64,000 bases of DNA from Moniliella sp. 'wahieum' (Eukaryota): contig RSEE01000032.1 of assembly GCA_003971905.1 (NCBI GenBank), positions 124,001 to 188,000 on the forward strand, given 5' to 3'. How positions within the stretch are numbered: the first letter of the stretch is position 1; every line of letters begins with the position of its first letter. Below are positions 39,837 through 63,349 of the stretch, piece after piece. The translations under genes and the position numbers were made by a program. A model generated the notes under the pieces. The model was not told the DNA's origin, did no database searches, and saw only the letters and a program-made list of their open reading frames with translations.

Positions 39837-41787
39837 GTTGGATACAATCATATGCCAATGTATACCTATCGTCGTTGTGCTCATGAGCGCAACATAGTGC
39901 ATTCTCCCCTCTATTGTGTTCATAGCATCTGTAGAGCTTTAAGGCTGGGCCAAAGAGCACTGCGTTTGACTGGTCTCGCTCATCCCGCCATGTGTACTGC
40001 TTGTTGGACCAAATCCTCCCAAATAAGAGAGTGGAAAAAGTAGTATTATGAGAGCCTGTTGCGCAGCGACAGCCGCTAGCGATATAGGAGGGTGAATACG
40101 GGCAAAATGGTAGGCTCCCGGCGCCCCACACTTTATCGCCATCTTGGACTTGTGCATGTCCCCGAGACGGGTGTGTCCATCAGTCACTCTGACCCGGCAG
40201 CCCACAGCTTCCATGGGCACCATGACATGTGACACAAGAGCGTCATCAGTGCATCAGCAACATTTTATCATGCTCCTCTCTGCTTCCAACTCCGCCCTCG
40301 GCTGGATGGTACTCACATTCTGTTCTCTGGTACTATGCTTTTGCGACTGACGGCGTCACACCAACTGATAAATCGCCCCCGCCTGCAGCATGTCAGTTTT
40401 CAAGATCGAATGATTAATGATCCTGTTCATCTCCGGAGTTGGATGATTTTGATTTTCTACATCATCAGCATCATCTCCTATCGAATCTCCTATCAATATC
40501 ACCTTGGCGACAGGTGTATTTTCCGTTGCATTCCCCCGTCGACTGGGCGGGGCTATAGCAGGCTCGCAGGCTCTTCCAAAACATAATATCGGGTGTGAAT
40601 ATTGTGAATCTGGATGTTTTCTCTCTGGATCAACTTGCTGATGCCTTTGATGGTATACAAAAAACATAAACGACGTTCAACACATTCCCCGCTCTCGCCT
40701 GCCATAGTCAATATCCGTTCACATGGCTCACATGTAAAGGAGCGTGACATGCATATGCAGGCGCATATCAATTCCCCTAGATCCTAGATCTCCCTTTCCT
40801 TTCTCCTTATTCATTCTTTGATCCATATTTCTGCCCTGTTTTTCACATTGGAAACGATAAAAGCCATATCTCCTTTCGGCTCTTATTCAGTTGCTGTATA
40901 GCCGTGTTCAGGCCAACGCCTCGCCATACGACGCAACACCGCAGCTGCGAGAGCTGCAAAAAGAAACGAAGAAAACGGCGCCCCGGAAACGGCGTTTGGA
41001 CCGAGAGACCGATCATCGATCAATCGATCAGGTGGATGAGGACGATAATCGATAAGTGCGTGTTGATGCATGATGATCGATGACAGCCGCATGATCATAC
41101 CGGTCACACGTCTGTCTTTCACGGCGAGTGTGCGAGCCCGGTTGTGTGGCAACCATAGCAAAAGAGGACGGTGGCGCTGCACAAGGCAAGCATAAGGCCA
41201 TTAGATCTTAGACACATTAGATCTAGACCACAACAGCTAGATCACAACAGCTTAAGGACAAAGGCCCAAAGGCCTAAGGCCTAAGGCCTAATCATCAATC
41301 AAGGCTAAGGCCAAGGGCGGTTCCCGGTATCCAGGAACCGGATCCTCGGGAAGGATATAAGGCCAAAGGCCCTGCGGCAAAAAGGCCAAATATAAGGGTA
41401 CTTACTATCCCATCCTATACAAGCCGTTTATCCGAAACGCAATCTATCCGCCTCTTCGCGCTCTTTCTTCTCCCGGCCGGCACTGCGGCAGTATGGGAAT
41501 AAAGTCCTTCGGCCGCCGAGCCACTCTGATTGTCTCATAGATATCCAGCCACTTCCCCTGTGGCTCGTCCAGGAACAGCCAAACCGTCCAAAAGGTGCAA
41601 CCGTCGATCATACTGGCTCCCTGCTGCACCAATACGAGCACGACATTTACTTGCACGCATAGCGGCCCGGTATTCAAAAAGGCGTATCTCCTTCTGTAGT
41701 CCCCTTCTGTTGCCCCCTTCTGTTGTCGTCACCTCTTCCACCAACCGCTTCCTCGTCGTTCCTCCTCCTATTCTCATTGCGTTCGCT

Positions 41788-44488
41788 ATGCGACTGGGAT
41801 TCTTTCGTCGACCCAGCGGGGCGTCGACGCCCGAAACCACTTCTCCCATATCCGAAGGCGTCGACAAGGACGACAAAAAGGCTGATGTTGATCTGCTTGC
41901 TGTTGGTGCAGAGGAGAAGGCTGCGGTGGATAACCTTAACTACGAGGGCGAGCTGCCCATGTCTAAGGACACCTCCGTCGCAACGGACTACAATTCGGAT
42001 GATGGTGAATCGGGGCTTGATGCCCACCCCGAAGTGCGCGCTGTTGTCCCTGAGACCGACGATCCCGACATGCCCATCAACACTTTCCGAATGTGGTTCC
42101 TCTCCATCATTTTCGTCTTGATCGGGAGCGGAGTCAACCAACTCTTCAGCCTCCGCTATCCAGGTGTCCACCTTGTCTCCCTCGTCTCTGAACTCATCGC
42201 TTTCCCATTTGGCATCTTTCTCGCTCGTGTTCTGCCCATTTGCCGGCTCAACCCTGACCGCAATTTCAACATCAAAGAGCACGGCTTGATTGTCATTGCT
42301 AGCAACGTCAGTTTTGGTCTCGGTACTAGCGCAGACAGTACCAACTTGATTCAGGCGGCACGCATGTACGGGATCAAGTTTCCAGCAGGAGAAGCGGTGT
42401 TGGCTGTGTTGTGTTGCCAGATGCTCGGGTACGGCATCGCTGGGCTGGGCGTGCCCTTTTTGGTCAAGCCGTCGTATGTCGTTTGGCCAGCCAATCTGTC
42501 CAATATTGCTCTTCTCTCCTCCATGCATGCCCGCATCCAAGAACCCGCGCCCTTTGGACTCCGTATGACCCGTCTTCGCTTCTTTTGGATCGTGTTTGGA
42601 ATTGCCTGGACGTGGTACTGGTTCCCTGGGTTGATCTTTACCGGGCTTAGCTATTTCACTTTCTTTTGCTGGATCTGGCCTAAGCACAAAGGTGCGTTCC
42701 TTTCCTGATCACTCCCCTCTTCTCAGGGCCCTCGTGTTACTTACCTTTGCTTCATTGCGACTGTATTTCAGCGGTCAATCTCGTATTTGGTGAGGTGACG
42801 GGCATGGGTCTCGTCCCATCAACTCTCGATTGGAGCATGATCGCCTACAACAGCAACCCGCTCCTCTCCTCTCTCGGCATGCACCAACGTATTTATCGGG
42901 TTTGCGGTTATCTTTTGGATTGTGGCACCCATCTTATATGTGAAAAACTACCGTTTCACATCCTATCTGCCCTTCTGCTCTGACCAAGTGTACGATCGAA
43001 CGGGTGCCATCTACGATGTATCTGCTGTCATGTCAAACGGAACGCTGGATGTGGAGAAATACCGTCAATACTCCCAGCCGTACCTCCCCATCACCTTCCT
43101 CATTGTCTATGGCCTGTCATTTGCCAGTTTGACGTGCGTCTTGGTTCATGTTGCACTGTGGAACTACCGCGACCTGGTCCATGCCTTCAAAGGAACAGGC
43201 CGAAAGAACATCCACACCCGCCTCAATGAGCAGTACCAGAAAGTACCGTGGTGGTGGTGGACAACCTGCATCGCCATCTTTGGTGCTCTATCTATCGGTA
43301 CGTTCCTTCCTTTCATCCATTCATCCATTCATCCATTCATCCATCCATCCTTCCTTCTTTCCTTCTATCTATCCAATCTTCCTCTCCATTTTGTGAACTC
43401 ACTGATCTAACCACCCCATATTTTTCTTCTTCAAGTCCTCATCGAATATTACCACACAGATCTTCCGGTGTATGGCTTGTTCCTAGGATGGATCATCCCC
43501 TGCATCTTCTTTATCCCTTGTGGTATCATTTTGGGCGTGACCAACGTGAACCCCAACCAACTCAATGTGGTATGTGACGGTCTCGTTTACCTTCAGTCCT
43601 TTTTTTCTTTTCTCATGTACTGACTCTCTTCTTTCACTTCCGCCTCTAGTTAAGCGAGTTTATCGGTGGTTACTTGTTTGAAGGCAAGCCGGTCGCTAAC
43701 ATGCTGTTCAAGATGCTTCCACCGACACGGTGGGGCAAGCGCAGTATTTTGCCCAAGACATGAAGTTGGCGCATTACCTTCACATTGCCCCTCGTCTTCT
43801 CTTTTGGGTGCAAGGTTCGGCCACAATATTAGGTGCCCTCACCCAGGCAGGCGTCACCATCTGGATGCTGGGCCATGTGAAGGATATTTGCAACCCCGAT
43901 CAAAGCAATGGGTTCGTCTGCCCCAATGGTCAAACGGTCATGAGCAGTTCTGTTGTCTGGGGCCTTGTTGGAACGAGGAGGACATTCGGGGCTGGCCAGA
44001 TGTACTCCCCAATGCTCCATTTCTTTTGGATTGGCGCCATCACACCTGTCATCACTTGGGTGCTGTACAAAAAGACCGGGTGGAAGTGGCTGAAGTTGAT
44101 CAACTGGCCTCTGTTTTGGGTTGGCACCTATAACGTCCCGCCCGCCACGGGTGTGAACTATTCGAGTTGGTTTGTGGTTAACTTGATCTGCACCAAATTC
44201 ATCTTCAAAGGGTTCTTCAGCTGGATGTATGCCTTTGCCGCTGCCCTCGACTCAGGCCTGGCCATCTCAGGTTCGTTGCATCCCATACTGCCCACCTTCG
44301 ACGCTGGACTGACCGTTTCCCTCTACAGGCATTGTAATCTTCTTCTGTGTCACCTATGGTCCAGGCGTCAACTTTCCTTCTTGGTGGGGAAATACCGTAT
44401 GGAAAAACACTACGACAACAACGGGACTTCCTGGAACCACCTGCCTGCCGCAGGTTACTTTGGTGGGCCCATGGGTTCTTGGAAGTAA
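41788..44488 (+). CDS. Oligopeptide transporter (OPT family)
   Basis: PEVRAVVPETDDPDMPINTFRMW; FNIKEH; WYWFPG; DMKLAHYLHIAPR; AAALDSG. Several introns. Confidence 0.95.
43312..43350. repeat. Intronic (CATT/CATC)n microsatellite
   Basis: TTCATCCATTCATCCATTCATCCATTCATCCATCCATCC inside an OPT intron. Confidence 0.8.
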
Positions 44489-46380: not shown

Positions 46381-49205
46381 TTACAGCTTGAGTTGCCCGC
46401 CCTGCGCTGGTGGGGGAGCTTTGGCCCGCTCCAAAGCTCCACGCTTCTTGACCATAGTGTTCCGCTGACCATCGGCTCCGACCAGCGACACCCCGGGCTG
46501 CGTCGCCACACGCCTGCACGCCGCCTGCTTTTCTGCGCGTGCCCCTCCCGCTTTGGGCTTGATCGTCGGCGTCGGGCCGGAAGAAGGACCATGGTTGCGA
46601 GCGCGCTTGAGCCGGCGGAGCCGTGTGTGGTCCTGCTTCTTTTCGTGGGACGTGAGTTCGTCCCGGGGCTCCCGCAAAGGAACGTGACAGCGTGCGCCCT
46701 GCGACCCGGACCCGTCGCAACCCCAGTCCGGGAAGAAGGATCGTACACTTCACGCGGAGCTTGTTGTGTGGCCTGGCTGGACGTAGCGAGCATAGCACGC
46801 TTGTTCGGATGCCATTGCCGCCACGCCTCCCGCGGGCGCAGCAGCCGTAATTTGCCCTGCGTGCACGTCGGCAGGACGAGGAGTGTAGTGGGCATTGGAG
46901 AGGCGGTCGAGTTGGTGGAACACATTCTCCACCAGCGCCGTTAGCTGAGCATGCTCTGCGGCCAACTTAGTGTCTGCCTCGGAAGTAGGCGCCCCGCCCG
47001 TCTGCGCTTGAGTGTACTCTTGCTCATACAGCTCAGCAAGGGACTGCTGGGATTTTTGGTCACTGAGCGAGGCGAGTTTGGAAGCAAAAACTCTTTCTCG
47101 CTTAGCGCCAAGCGCGCGGCACATCGTCAATTCCCCGGCAAGGATGCGGCGCTTGATCAATCTTCCACTTCCTCGTTCTCTTCTGCCGTCGCCAAAGGGG
47201 CCGACTTGAGCGCATGAACAAAGTCCATGTCCATGTCCAAGGCAGCATCCTTGGCCCGCGACGAGCCCGATGCCTCACCTTTCAATTCCCACTCTTTTGT
47301 CCCCACATTTTCGGCCTCCAGTGCAGCAATCTCGGCTTCAAGCGCCGCTTGCCGCTTTTCGTGTGTGGACAGTCCATCCGCCACATCATCCCCCTCATCT
47401 TGGTCGGCAAACAAATCTTGTGCCACGCGACGCGCCGTGCCCTCTATAGAGCCTTCATCGTCATCGTCCTCTTCTTCTTCTCCGTCGTCCGCATCCTCTC
47501 TCCTCTTCTTCTTCATCGTCGTCCTCCGACGCGTCCAGACTCATCTTTTCTTCGCCCAAATTGGAAGGGCCTAGAGAATGAGAGCTGGCCTTTTCTTGTT
47601 CTTGGTCACTGTCCCCATCCTCCTCGTCATCTTCGTCCTCCTCGTCTTCCTTCTCCGCCTCATCATCTCCGTCCGAATCAAGATCCACGTCAAAGGGATG
47701 CAATGAAGCAGGAGGAAACGAAAAGTCTTGAGGTTCGCGCATACCAGGCGCTCGCTTGATCCGACGCACTTGAACTTGGTCCGAAAAGCGAATTTTCCCG
47801 CGACCGGCACTGGTTGATGGGGCGCTACTGGGTGCGGTAAGGCTGGTTTTGCCTTCACCAACCGAATCAGACTTACGACCGGTCGATCGTCCAGCCGCGG
47901 CCGGAGGAGCAAAGAATTGATCGTACATGAGATCGGTACCCTCCTCCTCCTCTTCGTCCGAAGCCCAGGTAGACGGGTGCAAACATGTCCACGTCCACCT
48001 CAGGCTCCTTGGCCTCAGCCGCGATTGTGTCCCGCTGGAATGCAGAGAGGTTGAAAAATCCATCATCGAGGCTGGACGAGGGGGCTGGTGCGGAAACCTC
48101 AGTGTCTTGTATGTCCTCTTGCTCCAACTCATTTCCGAGTCGGATTCCGAGTCGGATTCGGACACAAACGCCAAACATGTCCTTCTCAGCTGCTCCTCTT
48201 CGTCTTGAAGTGGCTCCATAGTTACCCGGCTCGCCTCCTCGTCATCCGACAAGTCCGATGCACCTGGGAATCCTTCGTCTGCCTCTTCCGGTCCATAAAG
48301 CTCGTCGTCAGACATATCCTCCAACTCGGCGTCCTCGAGTTCAGCCTCTTCCGCATTGTGGGGTGCGCCTGAAGACTCGAAGGTAAACCCACGCTTGCGC
48401 AACTCGGCGCGCACCTTGAGAATCTCGCGCGGCGCAAACCCGATTGCCTTCAGTTGGGCATCCGTCATAGCTGCTAGGCGAGCCAAGTCTTCGTCCGATG
48501 CATCCTCATCGGTGTCATCATCGTCTTCGTCGGACACATCCTCCTCATCCTCCTCGGACTCGGCTTCGGCAGTGGCCAGGCGCTCCTCGGCTTCCTCGTC
48601 ATCATCTTCTGTTTGGTCCATTTGCACGGCTTGCTCGCACACCCCATCCAGGCCAGCATGACGAAGCTCGAGCTGGGTCCACAGTTGCGCGGCCTCGACT
48701 GCATCGGCCGTATCAGTCGACTCGGCAGGAGGGGGCGGGGGGACATAGAGTTCCGCCAGTGGCGTTGGCGGTAGGAGGTAATAGATCCGGCTCTGCCTCC
48801 GCGTCGGACTCGGAGTCGGACCCGGGGTGAAGGGGCCGTTTGCGCTTGGCAGAGGTGGAACGGGTGGTGTGATACGGTGCGGCGTGGCCAGCAGCGGTGA
48901 GAAGGTAGGCCTGGATGGCAGGGCGGGCCTCGGACTCGCCGGCTACGCCGGCATCAACAGAGCCTTGACGGCGTCGCGGGTTTGAGAATGGAGCCAGCGC
49001 TGGTGCTCGGACCACGACGCGGTTGGCCCCGGTGCGGATGGGGCTGCGTCCTGTGCGGCAGGCGCGGGCGTAGATGAGTCGGAGGGACAGGGGGCAAAGG
49101 GCAGGTCGGCCAAGGTGGGGGGGAGGCTGGCGAGGAGCTGCGGATGGGCAGCGACGCGGTCGCCCAGCTCAGCGAGCCAGGCGGGCGGAAAGGGGGCTGG
49201 GCCAT
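46381..49205 (-). CDS. MPP10: U3 snoRNP protein Mpp10
   Basis: Acidic protein; LDDGFFNLSAF; STHEKRQAALEAEIAALEAENVGTKEWELKGEA; SQQSLAELYEQEY; LDRLSNAHYTP; ends QLKL-stop. Confidence 0.9.
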
Positions 49206-49862
49206 GTGGGAGGGTGCGCGGGGGGTGCGCGGTGGGGTGGGACGGGTGGGGACGGCGGGGACGGGTGTTCGCTGCTCCTTGACGCCGTCGCAGCCGCTTG
49301 CGGCGATGATGATGATGGCGGAGGTTGCTGAACAAAAATCGGCAAAAAATTACCGCCCCGCGCGCCGCACAACGTGCGCCACACTGCCCCCGAGCGGGCG
49401 GGGCGGAACGCGCATTCCGCCCGCCACCGCGCCGCTGGCACTGCCCGCGGGCTGCAGCTGCCGGGGGAGGGGGGCGGTGTCTGGACGCGGCCTTGGCGCT
49501 GGCATGGGCTGGACGCTCGTCGACGTGGGTGGTGGTTGAGGAGAGAGCGAGGCGGTGGTGGTGGTGGTGGGGGTGCCGGCGGTGGACGTGAACGGGCGAG
49601 GGGGTGGGGACGGCGGACATGGGCATGGGTGTGGCGCGTGCATGCCCTCCACGCGTCGCCCACGCCGTGCGCATTGGGTACGGTGATCCGATCGGTGAGC
49701 GAGAGCCGCAGCGGGTGGCGCCGCGAGTCGGTGCAACGTGGGCGGCATTTGAACATTGCAGGGGCGGTGTGGTGCCCAGGCGGCGGCCAGGCAGTCGTGA
49801 GTCTGAGTCGGAGTGGCCGGCTGGCTGCCAGCCGCGCGCCCCCACCACCGCCTCCTGCGCCC

Positions 49863-52800
49863 ATGGATGCCGCCCCTGGGCCCGTCGTTGTCCTCGGCGC
49901 ATCCGGCCTTCTGGGCCGCCGTCCATGCGTCCTCCTCCAGGGGCGCCGTCGTCGGCACTGCCCATGCCCGACCTGCCCCACCCTGCGAGGCCGTCGACTT
50001 GCCGCCGATGCGATCCCCGCCCTGTCCAGAGGACGGCTCCGATCCGCGCCCGCAGCCTGGACCTTCCGCATCTGGATGCGCTGCTAACCGGCTCGCCCGC
50101 GCGATTGTCAACTGTGCTGCCGAGCGTCGCCCCGACCGCGTCCAAGCGGATCCTGCGGCTGCCGACGCGCTCAACGTCCATCTCCGCACGCCATTGCCCG
50201 CTGGTGCACCAGCCGGAGCGGCCGCCCATTCACTTTCACATGTCGACCGACTATGTTTTTGACGGCACTAGTCCGCCCTATCTTCCCTCCGCCCCCACCC
50301 ACCCCCTCAACGCCTATGGTCACAGCAAGGCACGTGCCGAGCAAGCCGTCACATCGGCTGGGCCTGAAGGGCGGACCGTTGTGGTGCGAGTGCCCATCCT
50401 GTATGTCTCCCCTCCCCTCCCCTCCACCTATCTAGTTCTCGCTGAAAGCTAACTCTTTTGATTACGGCAGCTATGGAAAGGTCGAGACGCCCGAGGAGAG
50501 TGCGGTAAGCATCCTCCTCGATGCCATCCGCCTCCCCCGTCCCGAAGGAGAGGTTTCCAAGGCGATGGACGCCAACCAGACCCGATACCCGACCTGCGTT
50601 GAGGACGTGGCCAAAGCCATCGTCCAGCTTCTTACTCTGCCCACTCTGCCAGCCATTGTACACGTTAGTGCCCAAGAAGCCATGACGAAGTACATCATGT
50701 CCATCGTGTTGGCTCGTGTGTGGAACGGGGCTCGCGCGCGGGCCTGGCGCGAACTCCCCCCCACCCCTATTTCTACGTCTGCTCTCGAATCCGACCCGGA
50801 CCACCCCAATCGTGAGGAACAAGGCGAGGAAGGGACGGAGGAAAAAGAAGAAGAGGAAGAGGAAGGACCTGCAGCCTCCACGGCGCACCTCGAACCCCTG
50901 TACGACGCCGACCCCTTAGCTGCGACCGCTAGGCCATTGAATGCTCGCCTTGATGTTACCGAGACTTCCCGCCTGGGTGTGGCGAGCGACTATGTCGAAT
51001 TTGAAACGTGGTGGGCCGATTACTTGTACGAGGTTCGTATCCTTCTGGTTCGAATCAGCCTCCTTTGTCTAACCCCTGTTTCCGTTTTGTGGTGGCGCAG
51101 CATGAAAAACATGTAGCCCAAGTCGTCGAGGAGCGCAGGCAGGCTGCCGAAGCACGCCGCCAAGCACGGGCAGAAGAAGCAGAGCGTCAAAAACGCTTGG
51201 AAGAAGAGCGAGTTGCGCGGGAAGCTGCCGAGGCTGCTGCTGCCGAGGAGCGCCGAAAACAGGAAGAGGCTGAAGCTGAGGAGCGCCGAAAACAGGAAGC
51301 AGCTGAAGCTGAGGAGCGGCGCAAGCAGGAAGAGGCCGAGGCGGAAAAGCGGAGCAAACAGGAGGAAGCCGAGGCTGAGGAGCGCCGCAAGCAGGAAGAA
51401 GCCGAGGTAGAGGAGCGGCGCAAGCAAGAAGAGGCAGAGGCCGAAGAGCGCCAGAAGAGGGAAGCGATCGAGGCTGAAGAGATGCGCCAAAAGGAAATGG
51501 CCGCGGTGGAGAGCAAGGAGAAGAGAAGAGGAACAGGCAGGCATTGAGAATGAGGTCGTCGATGTGGAGAATGGGGAACAGAAGGTAACCCCCCTCCAGT
51601 CAATGTCCCCAACCTGCCTGAAGCGAACGCTCAGGCAGATGGTGAGTCCGGCCAGGTACTCGACCAAGAGCGACGAGAGAACAAGGCTTCGGATACGTCT
51701 CTTGGCTCGCCGTCTGCGGATGATGAAACCAAGCAAAAGACTGATGCTTCTGACACGGGCGACACAATTACCGGCACTCGTTCAGCACAAGGGCCTGCTT
51801 CTGAGGACCAGTCAGTTTCCCTTCATGTATCAACATTGGCACGTTCCGGCCCTGAAGCCGCACCTCCCTCCCCACTCGAAGAGCCCGAGGGCCCAGTTCA
51901 CCCTGATTTGCAGGCCCCTGCCCTTTCGCCCGACCCATCCTTCAACTCTCTCGCTGCCCATCCCACTCCTCCGGAAATATCGCCCTTGGCTGAGCCTCAT
52001 ATCAACGATGAAGAGGACGACCCGAAGGACGATGCGCCTCTGGGAAGTCTGTTAGCTGCGCGGAGATCCACTGGTAAGCGTACAGGTGGGGGGGACAGTG
52101 ATTCAGAACGGTATGGCGCTCCTTCTCCCACGTCCTCTGCAGCACGTGCTGTGCCTGGACCCAAGCCGGCGCTGGTGGAGCATTCGGCGGAAGCTGTGGC
52201 ACCTGGAAAAGTGCATGTTGCGCAATCGCTCACCCTTGGTGTCAATGGCCATCCTCCCAAGGCATGGTTTGAGATCAAGGTTGGCGATCCTCAGACAGTC
52301 GGAGCGCCCATGTCGGCTCACACCGTCTACACGATGCGTACACGGACCACCTCGGAGCGGTTCCGTTCCCTGCACTTCTCCGTCCTGCGACGGTACAGTG
52401 ATTTCCGTTGGCTCCACGCTGCGCTTGTCCACAACCACCCGGGCGTGATTGTTCCACCTGTTCCAGAGAAGGTCAAGCTGGGGTTTCAACCCCGGAGTTG
52501 GTGGAAGCTCGTCGGGTCGGGTTGGAACTGTGCATCAATAAAATTGCCAATCACGCAGAGTTGCAAACGGACGATGACTTTGCCCTTTTTCTCTCCAGCG
52601 ACAACTTTGCCGCGGATGTACGAGCCCGCGATATGGTCAAGGGTCCCGTGCCCACGCCAGAACAACGGACCTATCTCGGCTGGGGATCGAGCTTAGTGAG
52701 TGTTACGGGGGCGGGCGGCCCCCGCTTTGTCGAGACGGATGAGTGGTTCGACAAGCAACGTGTGTACCTCGACAGTCTCGAGACCCACTTACGTACCCTC

Positions 52801-53962
52801 TTCAAGGCAGTCCAAACATTGAGCGAGGAGCGCCGGCACCGGGCCAAGGCCGAGCAGGAGCTCGCCAAGCAATTTTCCGCTCTCTCAACCAGCTCGTTAT
52901 CGAGGGCAACCTGTACCTGCTTTGCAGGTGTGGGGCAGACCACAGCCCTGGCCGCGCGATGTGGGGAGGTGCAAGCTGAGCGGATGTCCATGACCTTGGC
53001 TCGATCGTATACGAGTACGAGCGGATGGTGGGCAGTGTGCGGAAAGCATTCCAGACGCGCGAGGATGCGTGGATCGCGTGGCGCAGGGCCGCTGACGAGC
53101 TGAGCAAGGTGGTGGCCAAGCACGATCGTCTGCGGGACGAAGGGGCGCATGCGGATCGTCGGGACTTGGTTGAGCGCGAGGCTGAGGTCATGCGCCGCCA
53201 CAACCGATTTGATGCCATCTCCCGCACTTGCAAACGCGAGGTGGCCAATTTGACCACGAGCGCATCAAGGACATTCGTTCTGCGTTGGCGGCTTGGGTTC
53301 AGGGCATGATCCACCGACAACAGGAAATGGTCCACGAATGGGAAGAGTACGCTGCCCTTGTCGCTCGACAGACCAACCACCTTCATAAGCCTACACCAGC
53401 CACCGTGGCTGCTACCCCAGCCACGCCGACCCCTGCTCCTACAGCCACTGCGCCTCCTGCATCGAACCAGCTCGCTCAGGCACCTGTAATTGTCCCGGAC
53501 ACAAAGGATGCCCCGCACGCTCCATCTCAAGAGTCGGGAGAGGCAAAAGATGTGTCTCCTTCTGTGACGGAGGGCCCCGAGCCGGCCACTGGACCTACCT
53601 CTGAAGCTTCCGCCACAGCAACGCCTTCAGCTACGGAGACGGCCGTGGAGCCCTCTGGGTCGCCCCCTCCCCCGGCCGAGCAGCGAGAGGCGCCCAAGAT
53701 GGAGGAGGAAGCCCAGCTACCGGCCGAGCCCGTAGAGGCACCCAAGAAGGAAGAGGAAGCCCAGCCGTTGGCCGAGCCAGGCGAAGCGCCTAAAACTCAA
53801 GTGGAAGCCCAACTGCCGGCGGAATCCGTGGAGGCGCCCAAGAATGATGAGGATGCCCATCCGTTGACCGTGCCAGGCGATGCGCCCCAGATTCAAGAGG
53901 ATATTCGTGCTCAGCTGCCTTCCGAATCCTCGCCACCGCTCCCAACTGCTGAAGGTCTGTAG
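49863..53962 (+). CDS. Putative fusion: RmlD/MAT2B-like SDR + E/R/K helix + Vps5-like PX-BAR sorting nexin
   Basis: VLGASGLLG, IVNCAAERRPD, STDYVFDG, YGHSK, RYPTCVEDVA. In-frame intron 51033-51100. EERRKQEEAEA repeats. IKVGDP..HTVY..VLRRYSDFRWLH..HPGVIVPPVPEK (PX). FVETDEWF..YLDSLE (Vps5 BAR). Confidence 0.75.
51240..51490 (+). repeat. About 33-nt coding tandem repeat (EAEERRKQEEA), about 7 copies
   Basis: Repeated GAGGAGCGCCG(A/C)AA(A/G)CAGGAAGA. Confidence 0.85.
53686..53920 (+). repeat. 48-nt coding tandem repeat (EAPKxEEEAQLPAEPx), about 5 copies
   Basis: EAPKMEEEAQLPAEPV / EAPKKEEEAQPLAEPG / EAPKTQVEAQLPAESV / EAPKNDEDAHPLTVPG. Confidence 0.8.
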
Positions 53963-54424
53963 TAGAACCCCGGCGGTGACATGGGAGGGAGGGCGATGGA
54001 AGCACTCATGTTAAGCCCCAGTGGACTGATCTTGTTGATGTGCTACGTTGATGGCATGGGGATAGCATAGGCAGGGTGAGCTGTCCAGTGGGTGCGAATT
54101 GAATGGTACATGACCATCTGCACTCACCACGCTCATGTATGTTTTGGGCTCGCTCTGGACAGCGCAGAACGATCTACGGTAAGCGGTAAGGAGTAAAGCA
54201 GGGATGGCAGGCGACACAATTGCATCCTTTCTCGGAGCGCAATTCAACATCCATCCAAGTAAAACTATCGAAACCAGAAGTGAGAAGAGTGGAGAGGATA
54301 GACATGACCAAAAAGACGAGGAGAGGAGGAGGATTGGGGTGGGGGTGGGGGGGAGGATCCATGCCAGGCGATTTGGGGCACCATCGTGCCATTGGTACCG
54401 GCCCTTGGTGCGTTTGTTAGGCGT

Positions 54425-57400
54425 TTATTGGGCATTGTGCATAACAAGGGCCAAGAGTGCACAGCGGACCCAGACTCCGTTTTTGACCTGGCGCCAGTAG
54501 GCTGCGTGTTCCGACAAGTCCCCTCCTCGGCCAACTCGTTGACGCGGGGGAGCGGGTGCAGAACAATCATGTGGGGCTTGGCACGGGTCAGAACATCGTT
54601 GTTGACCACGTAGGCGTCCTTGACCGCCTCGTACTCGGACGGGTTGCTGAAGCGCTCCTTCTGCACCCGCGTGACATACAGCACGTCTGTCGTCGGCAGC
54701 ACCTCCTGCAGATCCGTCGTCTCGTACTGAGCCACCCCACGTCGCGCCGCCTCCGCCTTGACCTCTCGCGGCATGGCCAGCGCCGCAGGCGAAACGTAGT
54801 TGAGCGTCACACCCGTACAGCGCCAAAAGGCGCACCAAGCTGTGCGTTGTGCGACCATTCTTGAGGTCACCCAGCAACGTGACCGTCAGTCCGCTGACCG
54901 TACCCAGCTCCTCGCGGATGGTAAAGACGTCGAGCAATGCCTGGGTTGGGTGCTCTCCAATGCCGTCGCCGGCATTAATGATGGGCACCGGCGAGGCCCG
55001 CGCTGCCTTCTGAGCCGAACCCACCGCAGGGTGGCGCATGACAATCGCGTCCGCGTAGGAACCAAGCGTGCGCACCGTGTCCTCCAACGTCTCGCCCTTG
55101 GCCACCGACGAGGTTTGACTCTTGACCGGGCACTTGACCACCGAGACGGTACATGGCCGCCTCAAAGGAAGAGGATGCGAGTGGATTCCTCGTAGAAAAG
55201 AGTGCAGAGCACGCGGTTGCGCAGAATCTTGAGCATCCCATTCCGCTCCACACCCATGCGAATCTCCTGGGCAACCGAGAAGAGGGCGTGGAGATCATCA
55301 CGGGTAAACTGCTTCACCGAGAGCATGTGGCGACGGTTGAAGGAGGCGTGCGCCAGCTGCAAGGCCGAAGATGGGCTCAGCTCGCGGGCCGGAGTCGGAG
55401 CACTCACCCGCACCAACTCGCTTGTCGTATCCATCACAGGCGACATTGGCATCTCGCTCTCGGCCACAGACACCCGACGAAGGTGGCGCGTAGCCTTGGA
55501 CACCCCAAACGAGGTCGACACATTTTGGCCCCAGGGCCACGCGACACGCTCTCGCCATCAACAAAGACGGCCTTGCCTTTGCTCACCACACGCGAAACGG
55601 CGCCAACAGTCGTGCGCTCGCCAGCGGCGACCAAATCGTGCCAGTGGGACGCGGGGCGGCGCGGTCGACATCCACCTGCACTTCCGCATCGGGCGGGGCG
55701 ATGAAGCCAAAGATCTCACGCCCTTGAAGAGCTTGTCGTAAATGTCCTCCAGTTGCAGGCGCTTCTCGTTGACTGCATCGAGAAGGAGATGCATACTCTC
55801 CACGATACCAGAAGCAGCCGAGACAGAGTGGCCAAGCTGAACACCCATCATGTAAGCATTCCCACCGTGAGCACGTCAATGTTCGCCAGGTTCTCCCAAG
55901 TGTGCAGCTTGATCCGCCTCGGTCGGAAGGACGGTCGCCTCAGGGTAGGTACCACGGTTGAAGAACAAAGCGTAGATCGGCACATCCACCGAGACCTTGA
56001 GCCCCTTAGCCTTGGCAAGGGTGATGAGCTCAGGTCGGCCGCATCAGTCAGACCAGTGACGTGAATGGCACGCTGCTGCAGGCTGGCCAAGAAGAACGGA
56101 GGCCAGGTCGTTGCCCTTGGTGCTTGTCACCAGCAGGCGGTCCGCAGGCCACTCAGAGGCATTGGCTGCCGCCGTAGCAAGAGGAACGGTCTCCCCGTTC
56201 GGGTAGGAGGTCTACGCAGAGAGTGCGGCTACGCTCCGACAGGGCAGCCACTTCGTCCGGCTGAGTCGTCGGGGGCACGGCAAGCGCCAACGACACATCG
56301 CAATAAGCCGCTCCGGCCAACTTGCCCTCGACGATCGAGAGCGTGTGTTCGTCTCGGACCACGCTGGTAGTCCCCAGAGGCGAGAGGTGGACGGTGGTGA
56401 ACCCAGCGGCAAGCGAAGCCTTGGTCAACTCAGCCAGGTCGCGAGCGCCCACTGTCGGGTCGGCAATGTTAGGCAGGAAGGCGCCAACGTTGAACAGACC
56501 GGGGAAGGTGTGGGTCTGGTGCGAGGTCTTAAAGTCGATGCTCGAGATGGAGAAGTCAGAGCCAGCACGGCGGTAGCGCGCCAGAGCTTCAATGTAGAGC
56601 TTGGCGTTCTTGACATTAGTGATGAGCGGAATAGAGCGGTCAATCGCCAGACGACGGGCCTTGTAACCAATCGAAGTGAACGTAGGGGGACGGCGGTACT
56701 TGTTCTTACTCGGGAGCGAAATGAAGAGAGACGAGACACCTTGCGACAAGTGCGAGAGCAACGAGTAGCTGGACATCTTGTTGTCGTCTCCCTTCCAGTC
56801 CTCATCCTCAGGCAGGGCCTCCAGCTGAATGATTGGGATGCCTTGCTCAGAATAGAAGTCTGCAGTACCGCTCGAGCCGTAGAGAGTGTAGCCCAACTGG
56901 TGCAGCGTCCGTACAGATTGAACCAGCTCCTGCTTCTCGCTGAACGACCCAACCGACAGGAGGACATTCTTCGTTGGCAGCTTAAGGCCAGATGCGACCA
57001 TGCCCTTCAGGTACGCCTCGTACTTGTCGTGACCGAAGCAGGCCACTTCACCCGTCGAGGCCATCTCCACACCCAGAATCGGATCAGCGCCAGCCAGCCG
57101 ACTGAACGAAAACTGCGGAACCTTGACACCAACGTAGTCTTTCGGCAACGTCATCTTGGGGTACGGCTCAATGGGCAGGCCCAGCATCACCTCGGTGGCC
57201 ATCTCAATCGCGTCCACGCCCGTTACCTTCGAGACGAAGGGGAAGGAGCGAGCAGCACGGACGTTGCACTCGATCACCTTGATCTCGTTGTTCTTGGCAA
57301 TGAACTGGATGTTGAACGGACCCGTAACATGGAGCGATTCGGCGATCTTGGCCGTCGCGGCGGTGATCCGGCGCACCGTCTCAGGGTCCAGATCCTGCGG

Positions 57401-60400
57401 AGGGAGGATGAGGGTAGCGTCGCCAGAGTGCACACCGGCATTCTCGACGTGCTCCGAAATGTAGTGCATCACCAGCTTGCCATCGCGGGCGACAGCGTCC
57501 ATCTCAATCTCTTGGCGCCCTCAAGGTACTTGGAAATGACAACCGGGTGTTCACGGTTAACGGCAGCGGCCTGGGAGAGGTAGGAGGAAAGGTCATCCGA
57601 AGAGTAAACCACGTTCATCGCGCCCCCGACAGGACATACGACGGGCGCACCAAAACGGGGTAGCCAAAGCGCTCACAAGCCGAATAGGCGTCATCGTACG
57701 ACGTGAGTTCCTTCCACATGGGCTGGTCCACACCAATTTTGTCAAGCATCCGGGAGAATTTGTACCGGTTCTCGGCCATGTCAATGTTCTCCGGCGACGT
57801 ACCGAGCACCTTGACGTCTTGGCGGTGCAGGGGAAGAGCAATGTTGTTGGGTACCTGGCCACCCATCGAGATGATCACGCCGCTTGACTGCTCAAGGTCA
57901 TAGATGTCCAAAACCGTCTCCAGACTGATCTCGTCAAAGTACAAGCGGTCCGCCTCGTCATAGTCCGTTGACACCGTTTCAGGGTTGTAGTTGATCATGA
58001 CCGTCTTGTAGCCCCGAGAGCGAAGGGTACGCACAGCACGCACAGCACACCAGTCAAACTCGACACTCGAACCGATACGGTACACGCCCGAGCCAAGCAC
58101 AATGACACCCTTGTCGTTGAAGTCCACATCATGCTCAGTGGCGTGGTAGGTGGTGTAAAGGTAGTTGGTGTAGGCTGGGAACTCGGCGGCAACCGTATCA
58201 ATCTGTTTGACGAAAGGCATGATCCCCGTCTCCTTACGAACGCGACGGACAGCAAGTTCAGTGCTGCCCATGCACTTGGCCAGCAGTTTGTCAGAAGCCG
58301 AGCTGTTTACCGGCCCGCAGCTGATCGGCGCTCAACTGCGACAGCGTCTGCTTCGAGAACCAATTGGCAGCCTTGGTAATGCGCTCGAGCTTGCGGAGGA
58401 ACCAACGGTCAATCGAGGTTGCGTCGTGGATCTTGTCGACCGAGTAGCCCTTGCCAAGAGCATTGGCAATAGCAAAGATGCGGCGGTCCGTCGGCACGGC
58501 AAGCTCTTGATCAATCTCATCATCCTTGACAAAGTCGTTCTGGGTATAGGGTAGGGAATGTCAGTAATTGAGCCTACAATAATAACATGAAGCAAAAGGG
58601 TGTTAGTCTCAGGAAACGTACGGTAGCAAAGCCAGGGAAGGACGGGTCGATCGAGCGAATGGCCCGCTGGATTGCCTCTTCGAAAGTACGGCCAATGGAC
58701 ATGACCTCACCAACAGACTTCATTGAAGAGCCCAGAGTGGACGAGACGCGAACAAATTTCCGCAGATCCCAGCGAGGGAACTTGCAGACAACATAGTCGA
58801 GTGACGGCTCAAAGCACGCCGATGTTTCTTGGGTGACTGAATTGCGAATCTCGTTAAGAGGAATGTTGAGACCCAACTTGGCAGCGATAAAGGCAAGCGG
58901 GTACCCGTAGCCTTGGACGCCAGTGCCGACGAACGCGACAGACGGGCGTTAACCTCGATAATGCAGTACTCCTTGCTGTGCGGGTTGAGCGCGTACTGGA
59001 TGTTGCACTCACCCACCACACCCAAGTGGCGAATGACATTGACAGCGGTGGTGCGGAGCATGTTGTAATCCTCATCAGACAGCGTCTGACTGGGGGCAAT
59101 AACGATCGAGTCACCAGTGTGGATGCCGAGCGGGTCAAAGTTTTCCATGTTACAAACGGTGATGCAGTTGTCCTGCGCATCGCGAACCACTTCGTACTCG
59201 ACCTCTTTCCACCCGCGCATAGACTTCTCCACCAGCACTTGCGGGGAGTTGGCAAAAGCGGCCGTGCAGAGCTTCTGAAGTTCATCCACGTTCGAAGCAA
59301 ATCCACTGCCCAACCCACCAAGGGCAAAGGCCGCACGGACAATCACCGGGAAGCCAATCTGCTTGGAAGCCGCCAGTGCTTCTTCCCACGTCGTAGCCGA
59401 GGCCGAGGGTGCGACCTTTTCGTTGATTTCGGCCAGGGCCTTGGCGAACAGGTCCCGGTCTTCCGTAGTGATGATAGTGTCGATCGGAGTACCAAGAATT
59501 GTGACACCCAAAGCAGTAAGCTCCTCCTTAATGGCAATACCGACATTGAGCGCCGTCTGGCCACCAAACGTGACAGCAATGCCGTCGGGCCGTTCGTGCT
59601 TGATGACCTTCAGGACAAACTCGGGGGTGACAGGAACGAAGTAAGACCTTATCCGCCAAGCCGGCGCTCGTTTGGATGGTGGCAATGTTGGGGTTGATGA
59701 GCACAGTGTAGATGCCTTCCTCCTTGAACGCCTTGATCGCCTGACTGCCCGAGTAGTCAAATTCGCCAGCCTGACCAATCGACAGACCACCCGACCCAAG
59801 CACAAGGACCTTGCGCACATTCACCCGCGGGTGCGCCGCCTCGTTGTCTGCCTTCTTGCCCCCAACGAATTGGACTGGAGGCAAGGCCGGAGCAGGGGAG
59901 GTGGCAGCTGCCTTGACCGCGGCACAGTCCACCACCGAACGGATGAACACGTCAAACAGGAACTCCGTGTCGCGCGGGCCAGGCGCCGATTCCGGGTGGA
60001 ACTGGACCGAGAAGAAGGGGCCCTGCGACGAGTAGATACCCTCGTTGGAACCATCATTGGCGTTTTGGAAGAGCTCGTGCCAGCCATGAGGGAGCGAGTC
60101 GACGTTAACGGCGTAACCGTGGTTTTGGGAAGTAATGTAGCAGCGGCCGCTCAGCACGTCCGTGCATGGGATGTTGGCGCCACGGTTACCAAACTTCATC
60201 TTCTCCGTCTTAGCACCGGCAGCAAGCGAAAGAAGCTGGTGGCCAAGGCAGATACCAAAGATGGGCACCACCGCATCGCCTTGCCGGGCGAGTAGCTTTT
60301 CAATCGTCTTGATCGTCGGACCACACATGGTGGGATCACCAGGACCATTCGAGATAAAGACGCCATCAAAGGGCTCAGTCTCCTCTGTCGTCACATCATA

Positions 60401-61461
60401 GTCCCACGGCACCACCTTGAGCTCAACCCGCGAGAGGTGAAGCAGCGGATCTGGTTGCGCTTCATGCCCACGTCAATAGCAATAATCCGAAGCGGGCGAC
60501 CAGAGGGGTGCAACAGCTGGCTGGTAGCGGTCCCTTTGGCGTCATTCGTCGCAGTGGTAGCCAAGGTGAAAACTTCTGGCTTGGTGAGCGACACCTTGGC
60601 GACCAGATTGGTGGCGTTGTTGTCAGCAAAGGGGATTTGCTCAAACTCGACGCGCCAAAGAGCATCAGCGTCACCAGCGAGGCCAGTCACAGGCTTGGTA
60701 GCAGGCGTCAACGCAGGCGAGTCGGCGGCGGCGGCAGCCTTGAGGGCACGCAGCGGATCCTTGGGAGAGGACGAAAAGTTCTGCCGAGCCAACAACTTGC
60801 CCAACATCGACCCCCGTTCACGAATCTTTTTGGTCATGGCACGCGTGTCAATGCCGTAAATGGCAGGCACACCGTTCTCAGCAAGCCACTGGCCCAGGCT
60901 CGACTCGGCCAAAAAGTGAGAAAGTCTTCGCTGTAATACGCCACGACAAGTCCGCAATGTGAATGCGGGACGACTCAAACGGCAGCGCAAGCAGCTTTTG
61001 CGTCGCTGCATCGACCTCTTTGCGCGAGGGGCACCATAGTTCCCCACGAGGGGGAAGGTAAGCACGAGGATCTGACCTTCGTACGACGGGTCGGTGAGGG
61101 ACTCGACGTAGCCAACCATGCCTGACGGAGCAGCAAGCGTTAGCAGGGTGGATCACGAAGCGGCCGAGACCGAAAGAGCAGGTGAGGTACATACCCGTCT
61201 GGAAGACACACTCTCCACTGACGCTCTTGGAGGGTGCACCGAAGCTGAAGCCGCGGAAGGCAGTGCCGTCGGCAAGCTCCAGGACCATATCGCCCGCATC
61301 GGTCGCATGGGCGGCGTAGGGGGCGGGCGCGTGGCAGGCGGGGCAGGGCCCGCGCTGACGGGCGCCGGTGCCAGAACGGTTGCCGTTGCAGTTGCTGGCG
61401 CCGGCGCCGTGGCAGGGGCCGGGGCGGCAGCAGCGGCAGCGGCAGGAGTGGCGGTGCTCAT
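54425..61461 (-). CDS. URA2: Multifunctional pyrimidine enzyme: GATase-CPSase, DHO-like linker, ATCase
   Basis: [95 protein letters not shown]. Confidence 0.98.
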
Positions 61462-61909
61462 GGCAGAAGAGGAGTAAGGGTGGTGGTGGGGACGAAGGGG
61501 AGTTTGGTGGGGGCGGCAGCAACCTTCCTGGCAGGCCAAGTGTCCTACCAGGAAAGAGAGGAAAGGACGCACGCCTCGGCCGCACATCGGCCGCTCTTTT
61601 ATTACACGAAAAAAAATCCGACGCATCGGCCAGGGCCGGGCGGAATTGACCGGGGCCGGCACGGCGCCAGTGTGCGCCCCCAGCCGCATGTATCGCCGCT
61701 GCGTGACGGAGACTCGGCCCAAAAAAAAATGGAGCAGTGCGCGGGGGCAGTGTCCGAGCGTGTCGGCCCGTGCACCGCACAGCGCCAGTGTCGCCCGTTG
61801 CCACCTCTTCAACTTAAATGATGCCCGAGCGAGAAAAGAAAATGGGGCTCTACACACGCCAACTTTAGGGTCGAAACAGGATTGGATTCAATTTGTGATG
61901 CTACGGAAC

Positions 61910-63349
61910 TCACAACCCCCTAACCCCTATCGGTGTCACCGGCCAGCCAGCCACGCCTCCACCGCTCCGCGCCAGCGCCCCATATACGCCCAGTCGTCCC
62001 TCCACCCGCCGCCGCCACGTCCACGCCCGCTGCGCATCGGTCAAAACAGACGTGGCGTGCTCCAACCCAATCGCGTAGTCGTGCAGATCCAGCACCCCGC
62101 ATTGGACCGAGGCACCAGTCCCACTTCAGCAGCCGTCTCCGCCACCTCGTCGCCCCGCCAGTCAACTGACCGGTAATCCTCTGCCACCTGCAACTCAGCC
62201 ACCCCTTCTTCGGCCGAGGTGCCGGCGATCAGCCCCATCTCCACCTCCGCCCCAGTACTTGGCAGGCCAGCTGCCCCGCCCACCAGTACTGCCCCTGGTA
62301 TATGCAGTCGTTCCACCGCTTTGCCCACCGCATACGCACCTGGGCTGATGAAACCAGTTCCGCCCCCTTCAAAACGGTTGAAAGAGAGGATGCCGCGTCA
62401 GCTGGGTCAGGGCTTGTTCGCCCATAGCCGCGCTCACTAGCCGCACCGACACGAGTCGGTCGGGACCCTGGCCACCGAGGTGAAGTAAGGAGGCCAATGA
62501 CCAAGTACGGTAGTTCCCTGGCCAGCCGATTGTATGGAACACACTCCCTGGTGTATGGTGCTCCGGACCGACACGCCAAATTTGCTCGTAGAAAGAAGCG
62601 TTGGAACGTATCCCCTTGGTGGCGGGAAAAAGAGTCGCGTCAGCAACCACCGCCGCACTCGTCGTACCTTCCAGCCCATCAGCCAGGAGCGTCACCGGCG
62701 CTGCCCATTCCTTCTTGTCCCGCCAGCACCCCTGCCACCCCAATCTTGTGTGCCGATTCGGGGTGTCGATCCCATATCACGTCCGTCTGCTGGGCCGGCA
62801 CAATGTTCACCCCCATGCGCGTTGCCTTTTAGCCAGAGCCGCGATGAGCGCCGTCGTAGAGACGATCTGTCGGTCCCGCAGGCCCGTCGATGTCAACCCC
62901 CGAAACTTCTTCAGTGAAAGGGGATAGTGGCGGGAAGGAGTGAGAAAGTAGGCGCGCTCATCCGTAGTGGTGTGCAGCTCAACTGGGCCTGCGAAGTGCC
63001 ACGACGGCAATAGACTTTGCAGTGCACTGGTATTGACCACATCGTGCGTTCCGCCCACGCAACGGGCGAGAAAGGAACGTCAAGCACGCTGATCCGCACT
63101 GTGTCCTTTTCCTCCTGAGCCAGTTGGGCAGCCTTGACTGCTGCGCTGAGTCCGGCTGGACCGGCGCCAAGAATTAAGACATCGCACGTGTCCTGGGACC
63201 CCCTTTCCGGATCCCAACTTCCATGTCGGGGGGGTAGGAAGTGGCGATTCGTCGAAGATGAGGGAGAAAAAAGTAGAGTGTCGTAGGAGGGGAACAGAAC
63301 GGGTGGTGGATGGAAGAGTCGAGGCGGAGAGGGCACGGACTAGGGCCAT
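61910..63349 (-). CDS. Diverged ETF-ubiquinone oxidoreductase-like flavoprotein
   Basis: Presequence-like N-terminus; DVLILGAGPAGLSAA..AQL; TLLADG; EQIWRV..PGSVFHTIGWP; HPLF; IPGAVLVGGAAG. Confidence 0.65.

Follow-up and report, generated by a model that had tools for sequence, protein, structure and literature searches.

The window analyzed here is a 64,000-nucleotide stretch of DNA from Moniliella sp. 'wahieum' (assembly GCA_003971905.1, contig RSEE01000032.1, positions 124,001 to 188,000 of the forward strand), in whose own numbering all positions below are given. Between positions 49863 and 53962 of its forward strand it encodes, in colinear order, a short-chain dehydrogenase/reductase (SDR) domain, interrupted from what follows by an intron, a helix rich in Glu, Arg and Lys (E/R/K), a disordered acidic linker, a PX domain, a Vps5-type BAR domain and a Pro/Glu-rich tail. 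We conclude, with a probability of roughly 0.87, that the SDR, which is of the MAT2B type, and Vps5 belong to one protein-coding gene of ~1320 codons in three exons, that this gene is the ortholog of a Vps5-annotated protein of Ustilaginomycotina, and that the frame breaks running through it are assembly indel errors. In this analysis the domain order proved to be colinear, the fusion was found to be kept in relatives, and the SDR motifs were found to be strictly kept within the fusion.

Conservation of the fusion in relatives

When 1.84 billion representatives were searched by phmmer, using the PX-BAR piece of the window as query, 281 matches were obtained, 17 of them at an expectation value (E) of 1e-30 or below. 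SDR sequence is present in the same polypeptide in nine of these 17 best representatives: six (P0007, P0008, P0011, P0013, P0016 and P0017) harbor the full RmlD_sub_bind domain before PX and Vps5, while three (P0014, P0015 and P0001, the last being the closest relative of the PX-BAR piece with 76% identity) begin within the SDR C-terminus and pass through the E/R/K stretch into PX-BAR. The remaining eight start further downstream and are uninformative, four of them in the E/R/K segment (P0003-P0006) and four later (P0002, P0009, P0010 and P0012). Further down the list, RmlD_sub_bind was found in none of 30 PX-BAR representatives from below rank 19 that were scanned with Pfam, and an SDR motif in none of the 133 representatives below rank 17.

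The converse search, which started from the SDR and covered proteins 678-2158 residues long, gave 128 matches, the best 120 of which were considered. The combination of PF04321 (RmlD_sub_bind), PF00787 (PX) and PF09325 (Vps5) occurs in 76 of these 120 matches listed, covering 28 named species of Ustilaginomycotina, and all named fusion carriers among the matches listed are Ustilaginomycotina, with the exception of one record labelled as a plant. The fusion is found in the genera Ustilago, Sporisorium, Pseudozyma, Kalmanozyma, Melanopsichium, Testicularia, Tilletia, Exobasidium, Sympodiomycopsis, Parajaminaea, Tilletiaria, Ceraceosorus and Malassezia; the taxonomy of five species was checked and places them in the Ustilaginomycetes, Exobasidiomycetes and Malasseziomycetes, and the other genera, beyond these five species, we take to be Ustilaginomycotina as well. 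The plant-labelled record (P0164, Cichorium endivia) has the full SDR-PX-Vps5 order with an SDR 74% identical to that of Ustilago trichophora, and is probably fungal contamination of a plant assembly. A separate group of records from other fungi (P0221-P0236) has a MAT2B-like domain in long sequences with unrelated domains, for example with CN hydrolase and ankyrin in Rhizopus or with glutathione peroxidase in Wallemia, and these may be merged gene models or further fusions.

The fusion is also encoded without interruption in an independent metagenome locus (L002), where a single open reading frame (ORF) of 810 codons, from ATG to stop, contains RmlD_sub_bind (177 bits), PX and Vps5; a second locus (L004) has a 661-codon ORF extending from the middle of the SDR through the BAR domain. 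An earlier reading of this DNA, made from the letters alone and referred to here as the sequence-only reading, had proposed that the SDR and the PX-BAR protein are fused, and this proposal is supported by relatives that hold SDR, E/R/K and PX-BAR sequence in one polypeptide and by the single ORF of L002. Any suggestion of novelty is not supported by the same 76 of 120 matches listed, from 28 species, which are already annotated, e.g. as 'Vacuolar protein sorting-associated protein vps5'; that the architecture is widespread and annotated is what the sequence-only reading had itself named as grounds for refutation. Moreover, RmlD_sub_bind figures, for one protein, among the domains that accompany PX in a table, and in supplementary rows, of a survey of PX proteins from 2010 (PMC2837644). 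Beyond that table, no publication discussing or testing an SDR-Vps5 fusion was found in a literature search that extended over sources outside the subscription journals. The gene in the window is thus an ordinary ortholog of a fusion already catalogued under Vps5 and functionally unstudied.

Gene structure and frame breaks

A profile generated from 37 full-length fused relatives was mapped onto the window in separate frames (Table 1). Positions 4-846 of the fused-family profile map in order, the linker motifs included, and at the frame switches the profile positions abut (94 with 97, 163 with 163, 543 with 546, 704 with 704, and 795 with 793), indicating that no residues are lost at any switch. 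The same frame pattern was obtained by tblastn with the closest relatives. To read the window copy from end to end, two introns must be removed and at least seven frame corrections made. The sequence-only reading had allowed for about two indel corrections near 51520-51600; two are indeed called for at that site, but at least five further frame changes, near 49917, 50197, 52486, 52981 and 53250, bring the total to at least seven.

Both introns are of the fungal type, in a window whose guanine-plus-cytosine (GC) content is ~0.51-0.68 (in 2-kb windows). Intron 1 lies inside the SDR and had gone unmentioned in the sequence-only reading; it is supported by profile position 163, which is common to the two flanking pieces, and by homologs that read VPVLYG at the restored junction. 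Intron 2, in contrast, had been predicted there with its phase, donor, branch and acceptor sequences, and was found exactly in the predicted place. With P0001 as the tblastn query, residues 1-136 end at 51032 and residues 134-561 restart at 51122, with no query residue left unaligned between them. Retention of intron 2 would bring the gene frame to a stop at 51114-51116. Between the end of the SDR and the start of the E/R/K segment there are 68 nt with canonical intron signals, in agreement with the earlier observation that no intergenic gap is visible, and the in-frame joining of the SDR to the E/R/K repeat and then to linker, PX and BAR was likewise recovered at the positions proposed.

The gene frame holds TGA at 51545 and 51551, within an excursion (51506-51634) flanked on both sides by the identical frame. 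Two compensating 1-nt assembly indels are the likeliest explanation. The alternative of a 129-nt intron (GTGGAG..CAG) is weak: all in-frame GT..AG pairs whose excision would take out the two stops offer weak donors (GTGGAG, GTAGAG) and no CTAAC branch site. Third-position GC, at 0.54-0.75 in the true frames and similar in the wrong ones, cannot separate two indels from a 129-nt intron.

Next to the Vps5 gene and convergent with it lies a URA2/CAD-like pyrimidine-synthesis gene (54268-61813, reverse strand) with the domain order CPSase small chain, GATase, two CPSase large-chain halves, MGS, OTCace_N and OTCace. Its Pfam domains are distributed over overlapping frames that leave no space for an intron (Table 1); the split of CPSase_sm_chain (profile positions 1-30 and 28-125) was left out of the break count, as it spans a 64-nt gap that may be an intron. 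ORFs are short throughout the 64-kb window. Because this neighboring gene is likewise broken in the middle of its domains, we attribute the frame breaks of the window to assembly indel errors.

Table 1. Features of the SDR-Vps5 gene, placement of the fused-family profile, and split domains of the neighboring URA2/CAD-like gene (positions are those of the window)
Feature	Position	Strand	Basis or remark
Start ATG	49863	+	sequence read
Exon 1, N-terminal two thirds of the MAT2B/RmlD-like SDR	49863..50400	+	frames 0, 1 and 2 in turn, switching near 49917 and 50197; covers fused-family profile positions 4-15, 61-94 and 97-163
Intron 1, 70 nt, phase 2	50401..50470	+	GTATGT ... GCTAAC ... CAG; splicing restores ...VPILYGKVE...
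Exon 2, C-terminal third of the SDR, ending ...FETWWADYLYE	50471..51032	+	profile positions 163-312
Intron 2, 68 nt, phase 0	51033..51100	+	GTTCGT ... CTAAC ... CAG; joins ...WWADYLYE to HEKHVAQVVEERRQ
E/R/K-rich helix, probably a single alpha-helix spacer	51101..51505	+	composition and repeat analysis
Frame excursion	51506..51634	+	other frame reads EEEQAGIENEVVDVENGEQK; gene frame has TGA at 51545 and 51551
Disordered acidic Pro/Ser-rich linker	51635..52267	+	two clade-specific short motifs
Linker motif SPDPSFNSLAAHPTPP, P(N/D)PSFxS...RPTPP	51926-51973	+	alignment of fused proteins
Linker motif DSDSERYGAPSP, DxDxxYGxPSP	52094-52129	+	alignment of fused proteins
PX domain	52268..52602 (approx.)	+	Pfam; frame change near 52486
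Vps5-type BAR domain	52696..53353	+	Pfam; frame changes near 52981 and 53250
Pro/Glu/Ala-rich C-terminal tail	53354..53962	+	48-nt repeat inside
Stop TAG, second TAG directly after	53960-53962	+	sequence read
Profile 4-15	49884-49919	+	frame 0
Profile 61-94	50098-50199	+	frame 1
Profile 97-163	50195-50404	+	frame 2
Profile 163-312	50472-51035	+	frame 0
Profile 349-543	51665-52483	+	frame 2
Profile 546-704	52489-52983	+	frame 1
Profile 704-795	52980-53255	+	frame 0
Profile 793-846	53246-53488	+	frame 2
OTCace		-	profile 2-36 and 22-129; split in URA2/CAD-like gene
CPSase_L_D1		-	profile 2-63 and 58-116; split in URA2/CAD-like gene
OTCace_N		-	profile 1-52 and 75-148; split in URA2/CAD-like gene
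Second CPSase_L_D2		-	profile 2-51 and 93-208; split in URA2/CAD-like gene
CPSase_L_D3		-	cut off at profile position 71; URA2/CAD-like gene

The linker

The disordered linker of the window is ~250 residues long. Its two short motifs (Table 1) are confined to the fusion clade among the 150 representatives compared, and Tyr601, Gly602 and Pro606 of the linker are invariant in all 37 aligned fused proteins. In the gene frame, ATG is absent both from 51554 up to the PX domain and between 51005 and 51482. Conservation of the motifs, together with the lack of an in-frame ATG after 51554, implies that translation enters the linker from upstream, in a frame continuous with the E/R/K repeat, and the missing ATGs in both intervals mean that a separate ORF for Vps5 cannot be drawn. 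The motifs may serve the retromer trimer, or another partner, as docking sites.

Two forms of the linker were distinguished. The long form (330-490 residues), which the window has, occurs in the smut, Tilletia and Exobasidium types and has an E/R/K fraction of ~0.2-0.7 (mostly 0.4 or higher) over the first 120 linker residues. The short form, of 93-196 residues and with no E/R/K helix, occurs in the Malassezia types. The linker of P0011, at 166 residues, was assigned to neither form.

The E/R/K segment of the window contains a 33-nt (11-residue) repeat at 51245-51452, present in 6.3 copies with 81% matches and no indels. Glu, Arg and Lys account for 60% of its residues, and for 90% when Ala and Gln are included; hydrophobic residues make up 7%, and Pro and Gly are absent. 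Occupancy of the heptad a/d positions by hydrophobic residues is 0.12 or lower in every register, and opposite charges are dense at i/i+4. This composition suggests an ER/K single alpha-helix (SAH) spacer and not a coiled coil; the helix, of ~135 residues, would be roughly 20 nm long.

The MAT2B-like SDR

The RmlD_sub_bind domain, of the extended SDR type, was detected in the window with 56.2 bits at 50180-50404 (Pfam cut-off 27), far above chance, and pieces in other frames score 23.0 and 13.9 bits against neighboring stretches of the same profile. Exon 1 harbors the motifs GASGLLG (49896-49916), AAERRPD, STDYVFDG and YGHSK (50315-50329), the first and last of which the sequence-only reading had correctly described as intact. 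GASGLLG represents the dinucleotide-binding GxxGxxG at the N-terminus, and STDYVFDG and YGHSK the catalytic-type S/T ... YxxxK motifs. Among 53 fused proteins STDYVFDG is present in all, YxxSK and FxxWW in 52 each, and GxxGxxG in 46, the proteins without it being truncated at the N-terminus; in the 37 aligned fused proteins the Rossmann and Tyr/Lys columns are invariant.

MAT2B is the regulatory beta subunit of methionine adenosyltransferase. The exon 1 piece of the window matches human MAT2B with E 2.5e-8 and the piece at 50472-51032 with E 3.2e-10, MAT2B chains being the only solved-structure matches of the latter; STDYVFDG and YGHSK of the window align with SSDYVFDG and YGKTK of MAT2B. The exon 2 match is split into two stretches by an acidic insert of ~50 residues (about 50727-50879). 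For the fused relative P0007, residues 2-294 match human MAT2B with E 2.2e-55, compared with 7e-19 to 5e-11 for the dTDP-4-dehydrorhamnose reductases listed. The earlier assignment to an RmlD/MAT2B-like SDR can accordingly be narrowed: on these E values the domain is closer to MAT2B than to bacterial RmlD, and by sequence likeness the SDR of the fusion is MAT2B-like and not bacterial RmlD-like.

Other approaches to the SDR were less informative. Word-index searches with the piece 50472-51032 gave no match at two length classes (0 of 2145 and 0 of 304 candidates scored), which we attribute to the divergence of the piece and its low-complexity insert; a cluster look-up of the SDR part returned generic RmlD/epimerase clusters only; and a single-sequence AlphaFold2 model of 50472-51032 was poor (mean predicted local distance difference test score 44.6), so nothing was deduced from it.

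The PX-BAR region and the tail

The PX domain is detected in two frames, with 40.7 and 26.6 bits (Pfam cut-off 21.6) for profile positions 4-44 and 30-84, and shows the motifs LRRYSDF (52385-52405), followed by PPVPEK and EARR. In PX domains the RRYxxF, PPxPxK and ARR motifs have a role in the binding of phosphatidylinositol 3-phosphate (PI3P). The Vps5 domain is spread over three frames scoring 60.7, 57.2 and 27.2 bits (Pfam cut-off 27) for profile positions 9-110, 105-205 and 199-234, which together cover 9-234 of 236. These Pfam scores, like that of the SDR, are far above chance. The best solved-structure match of the BAR part is Vps5 of Chaetomium thermophilum (6h7w; E 6.9e-23), and human SNX1 is likewise among the best matches of the PX-BAR half. 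After the BAR domain, the acidic C-terminal tail contains a tandem repeat of 48 nt (16 residues) in four copies at 53672-53863 on the forward strand.

Alternative readings

Several points weigh against a single intact gene in the window. The single ORF is reconstructed and not observed, as it involves two in-frame stops, at least seven corrections and two predicted introns, and the fusion is read in the window at the level of DNA sequence. Most fusion members in the databases are computational gene models. The starts of P0003-P0006 in the E/R/K segment could also reflect an internal start or an isoform consisting of Vps5 alone, and equally well ORF calls interrupted by an intron comparable to intron 2. 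Lastly, the breaks, at least seven in ~4 kb, are as dense as or denser than the minimum of 5-7 in ~7.5 kb counted for the URA2-like gene, and the window copy may have undergone some real decay.

The alternative that survives best, although we judge it distinctly unlikely, is that the fused gene is real but that a shorter Vps5-only product is made in addition, from an internal promoter or through retention of intron 2, in which case the SDR would be carried by part of the Vps5 pool. With intron 2 retained, the SDR would gain 27 residues before a stop at 51116, gene-frame ATGs are available at 51482 and 51497, and the ORF calls of relatives begin at the E/R/K segment. However, such starts are also expected from unspliced ORF calling across an intron, and the Malassezia-type genes are uninterrupted ORFs.

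That the window copy is instead a decaying pseudogene, its frame breaks being real mutations, is very unlikely. This explanation draws on the density of at least seven frame changes and two stops in ~4 kb relative to the lower bound for the URA2-like gene, but the adjacent gene for pyrimidine synthesis, one that a free-living fungus should require, is broken mid-domain in the same way, and ORFs are short over the entire window. Furthermore, the profile positions abut at every break with zero residues lost, and all diagnostic motifs are intact at the protein level, as fits single-base indel errors without accompanying substitutions.

Least tenable, and in our estimate extremely unlikely, is a pair of adjacent genes, an SDR with a coiled-coil tail ending at TGA 51545 and a separate downstream Vps5, merged by gene predictors in the relatives and by the indel corrections of the sequence-only reading in the window, for while the in-frame stops at 51545 and 51551, the ORF calls of P0003-P0006 beginning in the E/R/K segment and the merged look of the MAT2B-like records P0221-P0236 speak for it, the downstream frame has conserved linker motifs yet no ATG before PX, the frame is identical on both sides of the stops, the uninterrupted 810-codon ORF of L002 spans both halves, 76 database clusters (among the 120 matches listed) from three fungal classes keep the halves in frame, and the 68 nt of canonical intron leave no intergenic space.

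Proposed function

Vps5/SNX1 proteins bind PI3P on endosomes, dimerize, tubulate membranes and recruit the Vps26-Vps29-Vps35 trimer. In the single fused protein that we favor, the PX-BAR half would act as an ordinary Vps5, the PX domain binding PI3P and the BAR domain dimerizing and tubulating the membrane, while the disordered N-terminal linker would recruit the Vps26-Vps29-Vps35 trimer and the SDR would be kept away from the coat, beyond the helix and linker. The sequence-only reading had put forward, as a hypothesis, that a metabolic or redox-sensing module is tethered to the endosomal tubules of retromer. The SDR itself would most likely be a regulatory or docking module of the MAT2B kind that binds nicotinamide adenine dinucleotide phosphate, NADP(H), and not a nucleotide-sugar reductase. 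Docking to S-adenosylmethionine (SAM) synthetase in the human manner is questionable because the contact tail of MAT2B is replaced here by the E/R/K helix, and by this analogy it is doubtful that the SDR of the fusion still meets SAM synthetase.

A broader proposal, which we put forward tentatively and with the odds clearly against it, is that Vps5 across the Ustilaginomycotina (smuts, bunts, Exobasidium and Malassezia) permanently carries a strictly conserved MAT2B-type NADP(H) module, constituting a lineage-wide link of redox or one-carbon (SAM) metabolism with endosomal sorting. The SDR might tune assembly of the retromer coat according to the NADP(H) state, or might recruit to endosomes either SAM synthetase or a different partner of MAT2B; in the smut-type proteins it would sit on a rigid ER/K spacer of ~20 nm. 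For the window itself the consequence is small, the odd look of the gene arising largely from assembly indel errors. From a fusion conserved in this way, regulation of the MAT2B type would be expected to be functionally linked with retromer, which is a matter of the lineage and not of this window.

Neighboring features

An OPT oligopeptide transporter gene (41530-44488, forward strand) is split over at least two ORFs and matches positions 2-199 and 442-616 of the Pfam OPT profile. On the reverse strand, a 493-codon open frame (47461-48942) encodes a very acidic, Ser/Asp/Glu-rich protein with no Pfam match; it and the SDR-Vps5 gene point away from each other, with ~900 bp of G-rich sequence (49000-49860) between them. 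A weak match to the ETF-QO ubiquinone-binding domain (62369-62776, reverse strand) scores 24.2 bits, under the cut-off of 27.7. Six antisense ORFs on the reverse strand (48943-50229, 49169-50083, 49350-50267, 51020-51781, 52671-53264 and 52802-53626) have no Pfam match and were taken as by-products of high GC content.

Comparison with known systems

The nearest counterparts of the window gene are Ustilaginomycotina records named Vps5 or 'PX domain-containing protein', which share with it the order RmlD_sub_bind, linker, PX and Vps5, the SDR motifs and the linker motifs. They include SPO29314.1 (Ustilago trichophora), KAK0558144.1 (Tilletia horrida), WFD01518.1 (Malassezia obtusa) and UniRef100_V5EPV7 (Kalmanozyma brasiliensis). 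A long E/R/K-rich linker, as in the window, is found in the members from smuts, Tilletia and Exobasidium. The window differs from the named fusion members in that its PX-BAR piece is only 45-58% identical to theirs, and from the other fusion members in that its copy is frame-broken.

For the SDR half, the best solved match is human MAT2B (PDB 2ydx, 4ndn and 4ktt), with GxxGxxG, (S/T)DYVFDG and YGxxK present in both proteins. In MAT2B the GxxGxxG motif, GATGLLG, is described as binding NADP, and a free C-terminal tail as inserting into the MAT-alpha2 dimer, deletion of the last 15 residues abolishing the complex (PMC4107924). Whereas human MAT2B is a free-standing protein of ~330 residues with a free tail, the end of the SDR in the window runs via intron 2 into the E/R/K helix and Vps5, and the window SDR has in addition the acidic insert relative to human MAT2B.

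The PX-BAR half is colinear with the Vps5/SNX1 proteins of the SNX-BAR type (6h7w; human SNX1, 7d6d and 8afz). Unlike the window, Vps5/SNX1 representatives below ~45% identity to its PX-BAR piece show no SDR, judging from the 30 scanned with Pfam and the 133 examined for the SDR motif.

ER/K SAH spacers have been described for myosin VI, myosin X and caldesmon. The E/R/K segment of the window resembles these spacers in composition, in charge pattern and in having no hydrophobic heptad, while its 11-residue EERRKQEEAEA repeat is specific to the fusion lineage.

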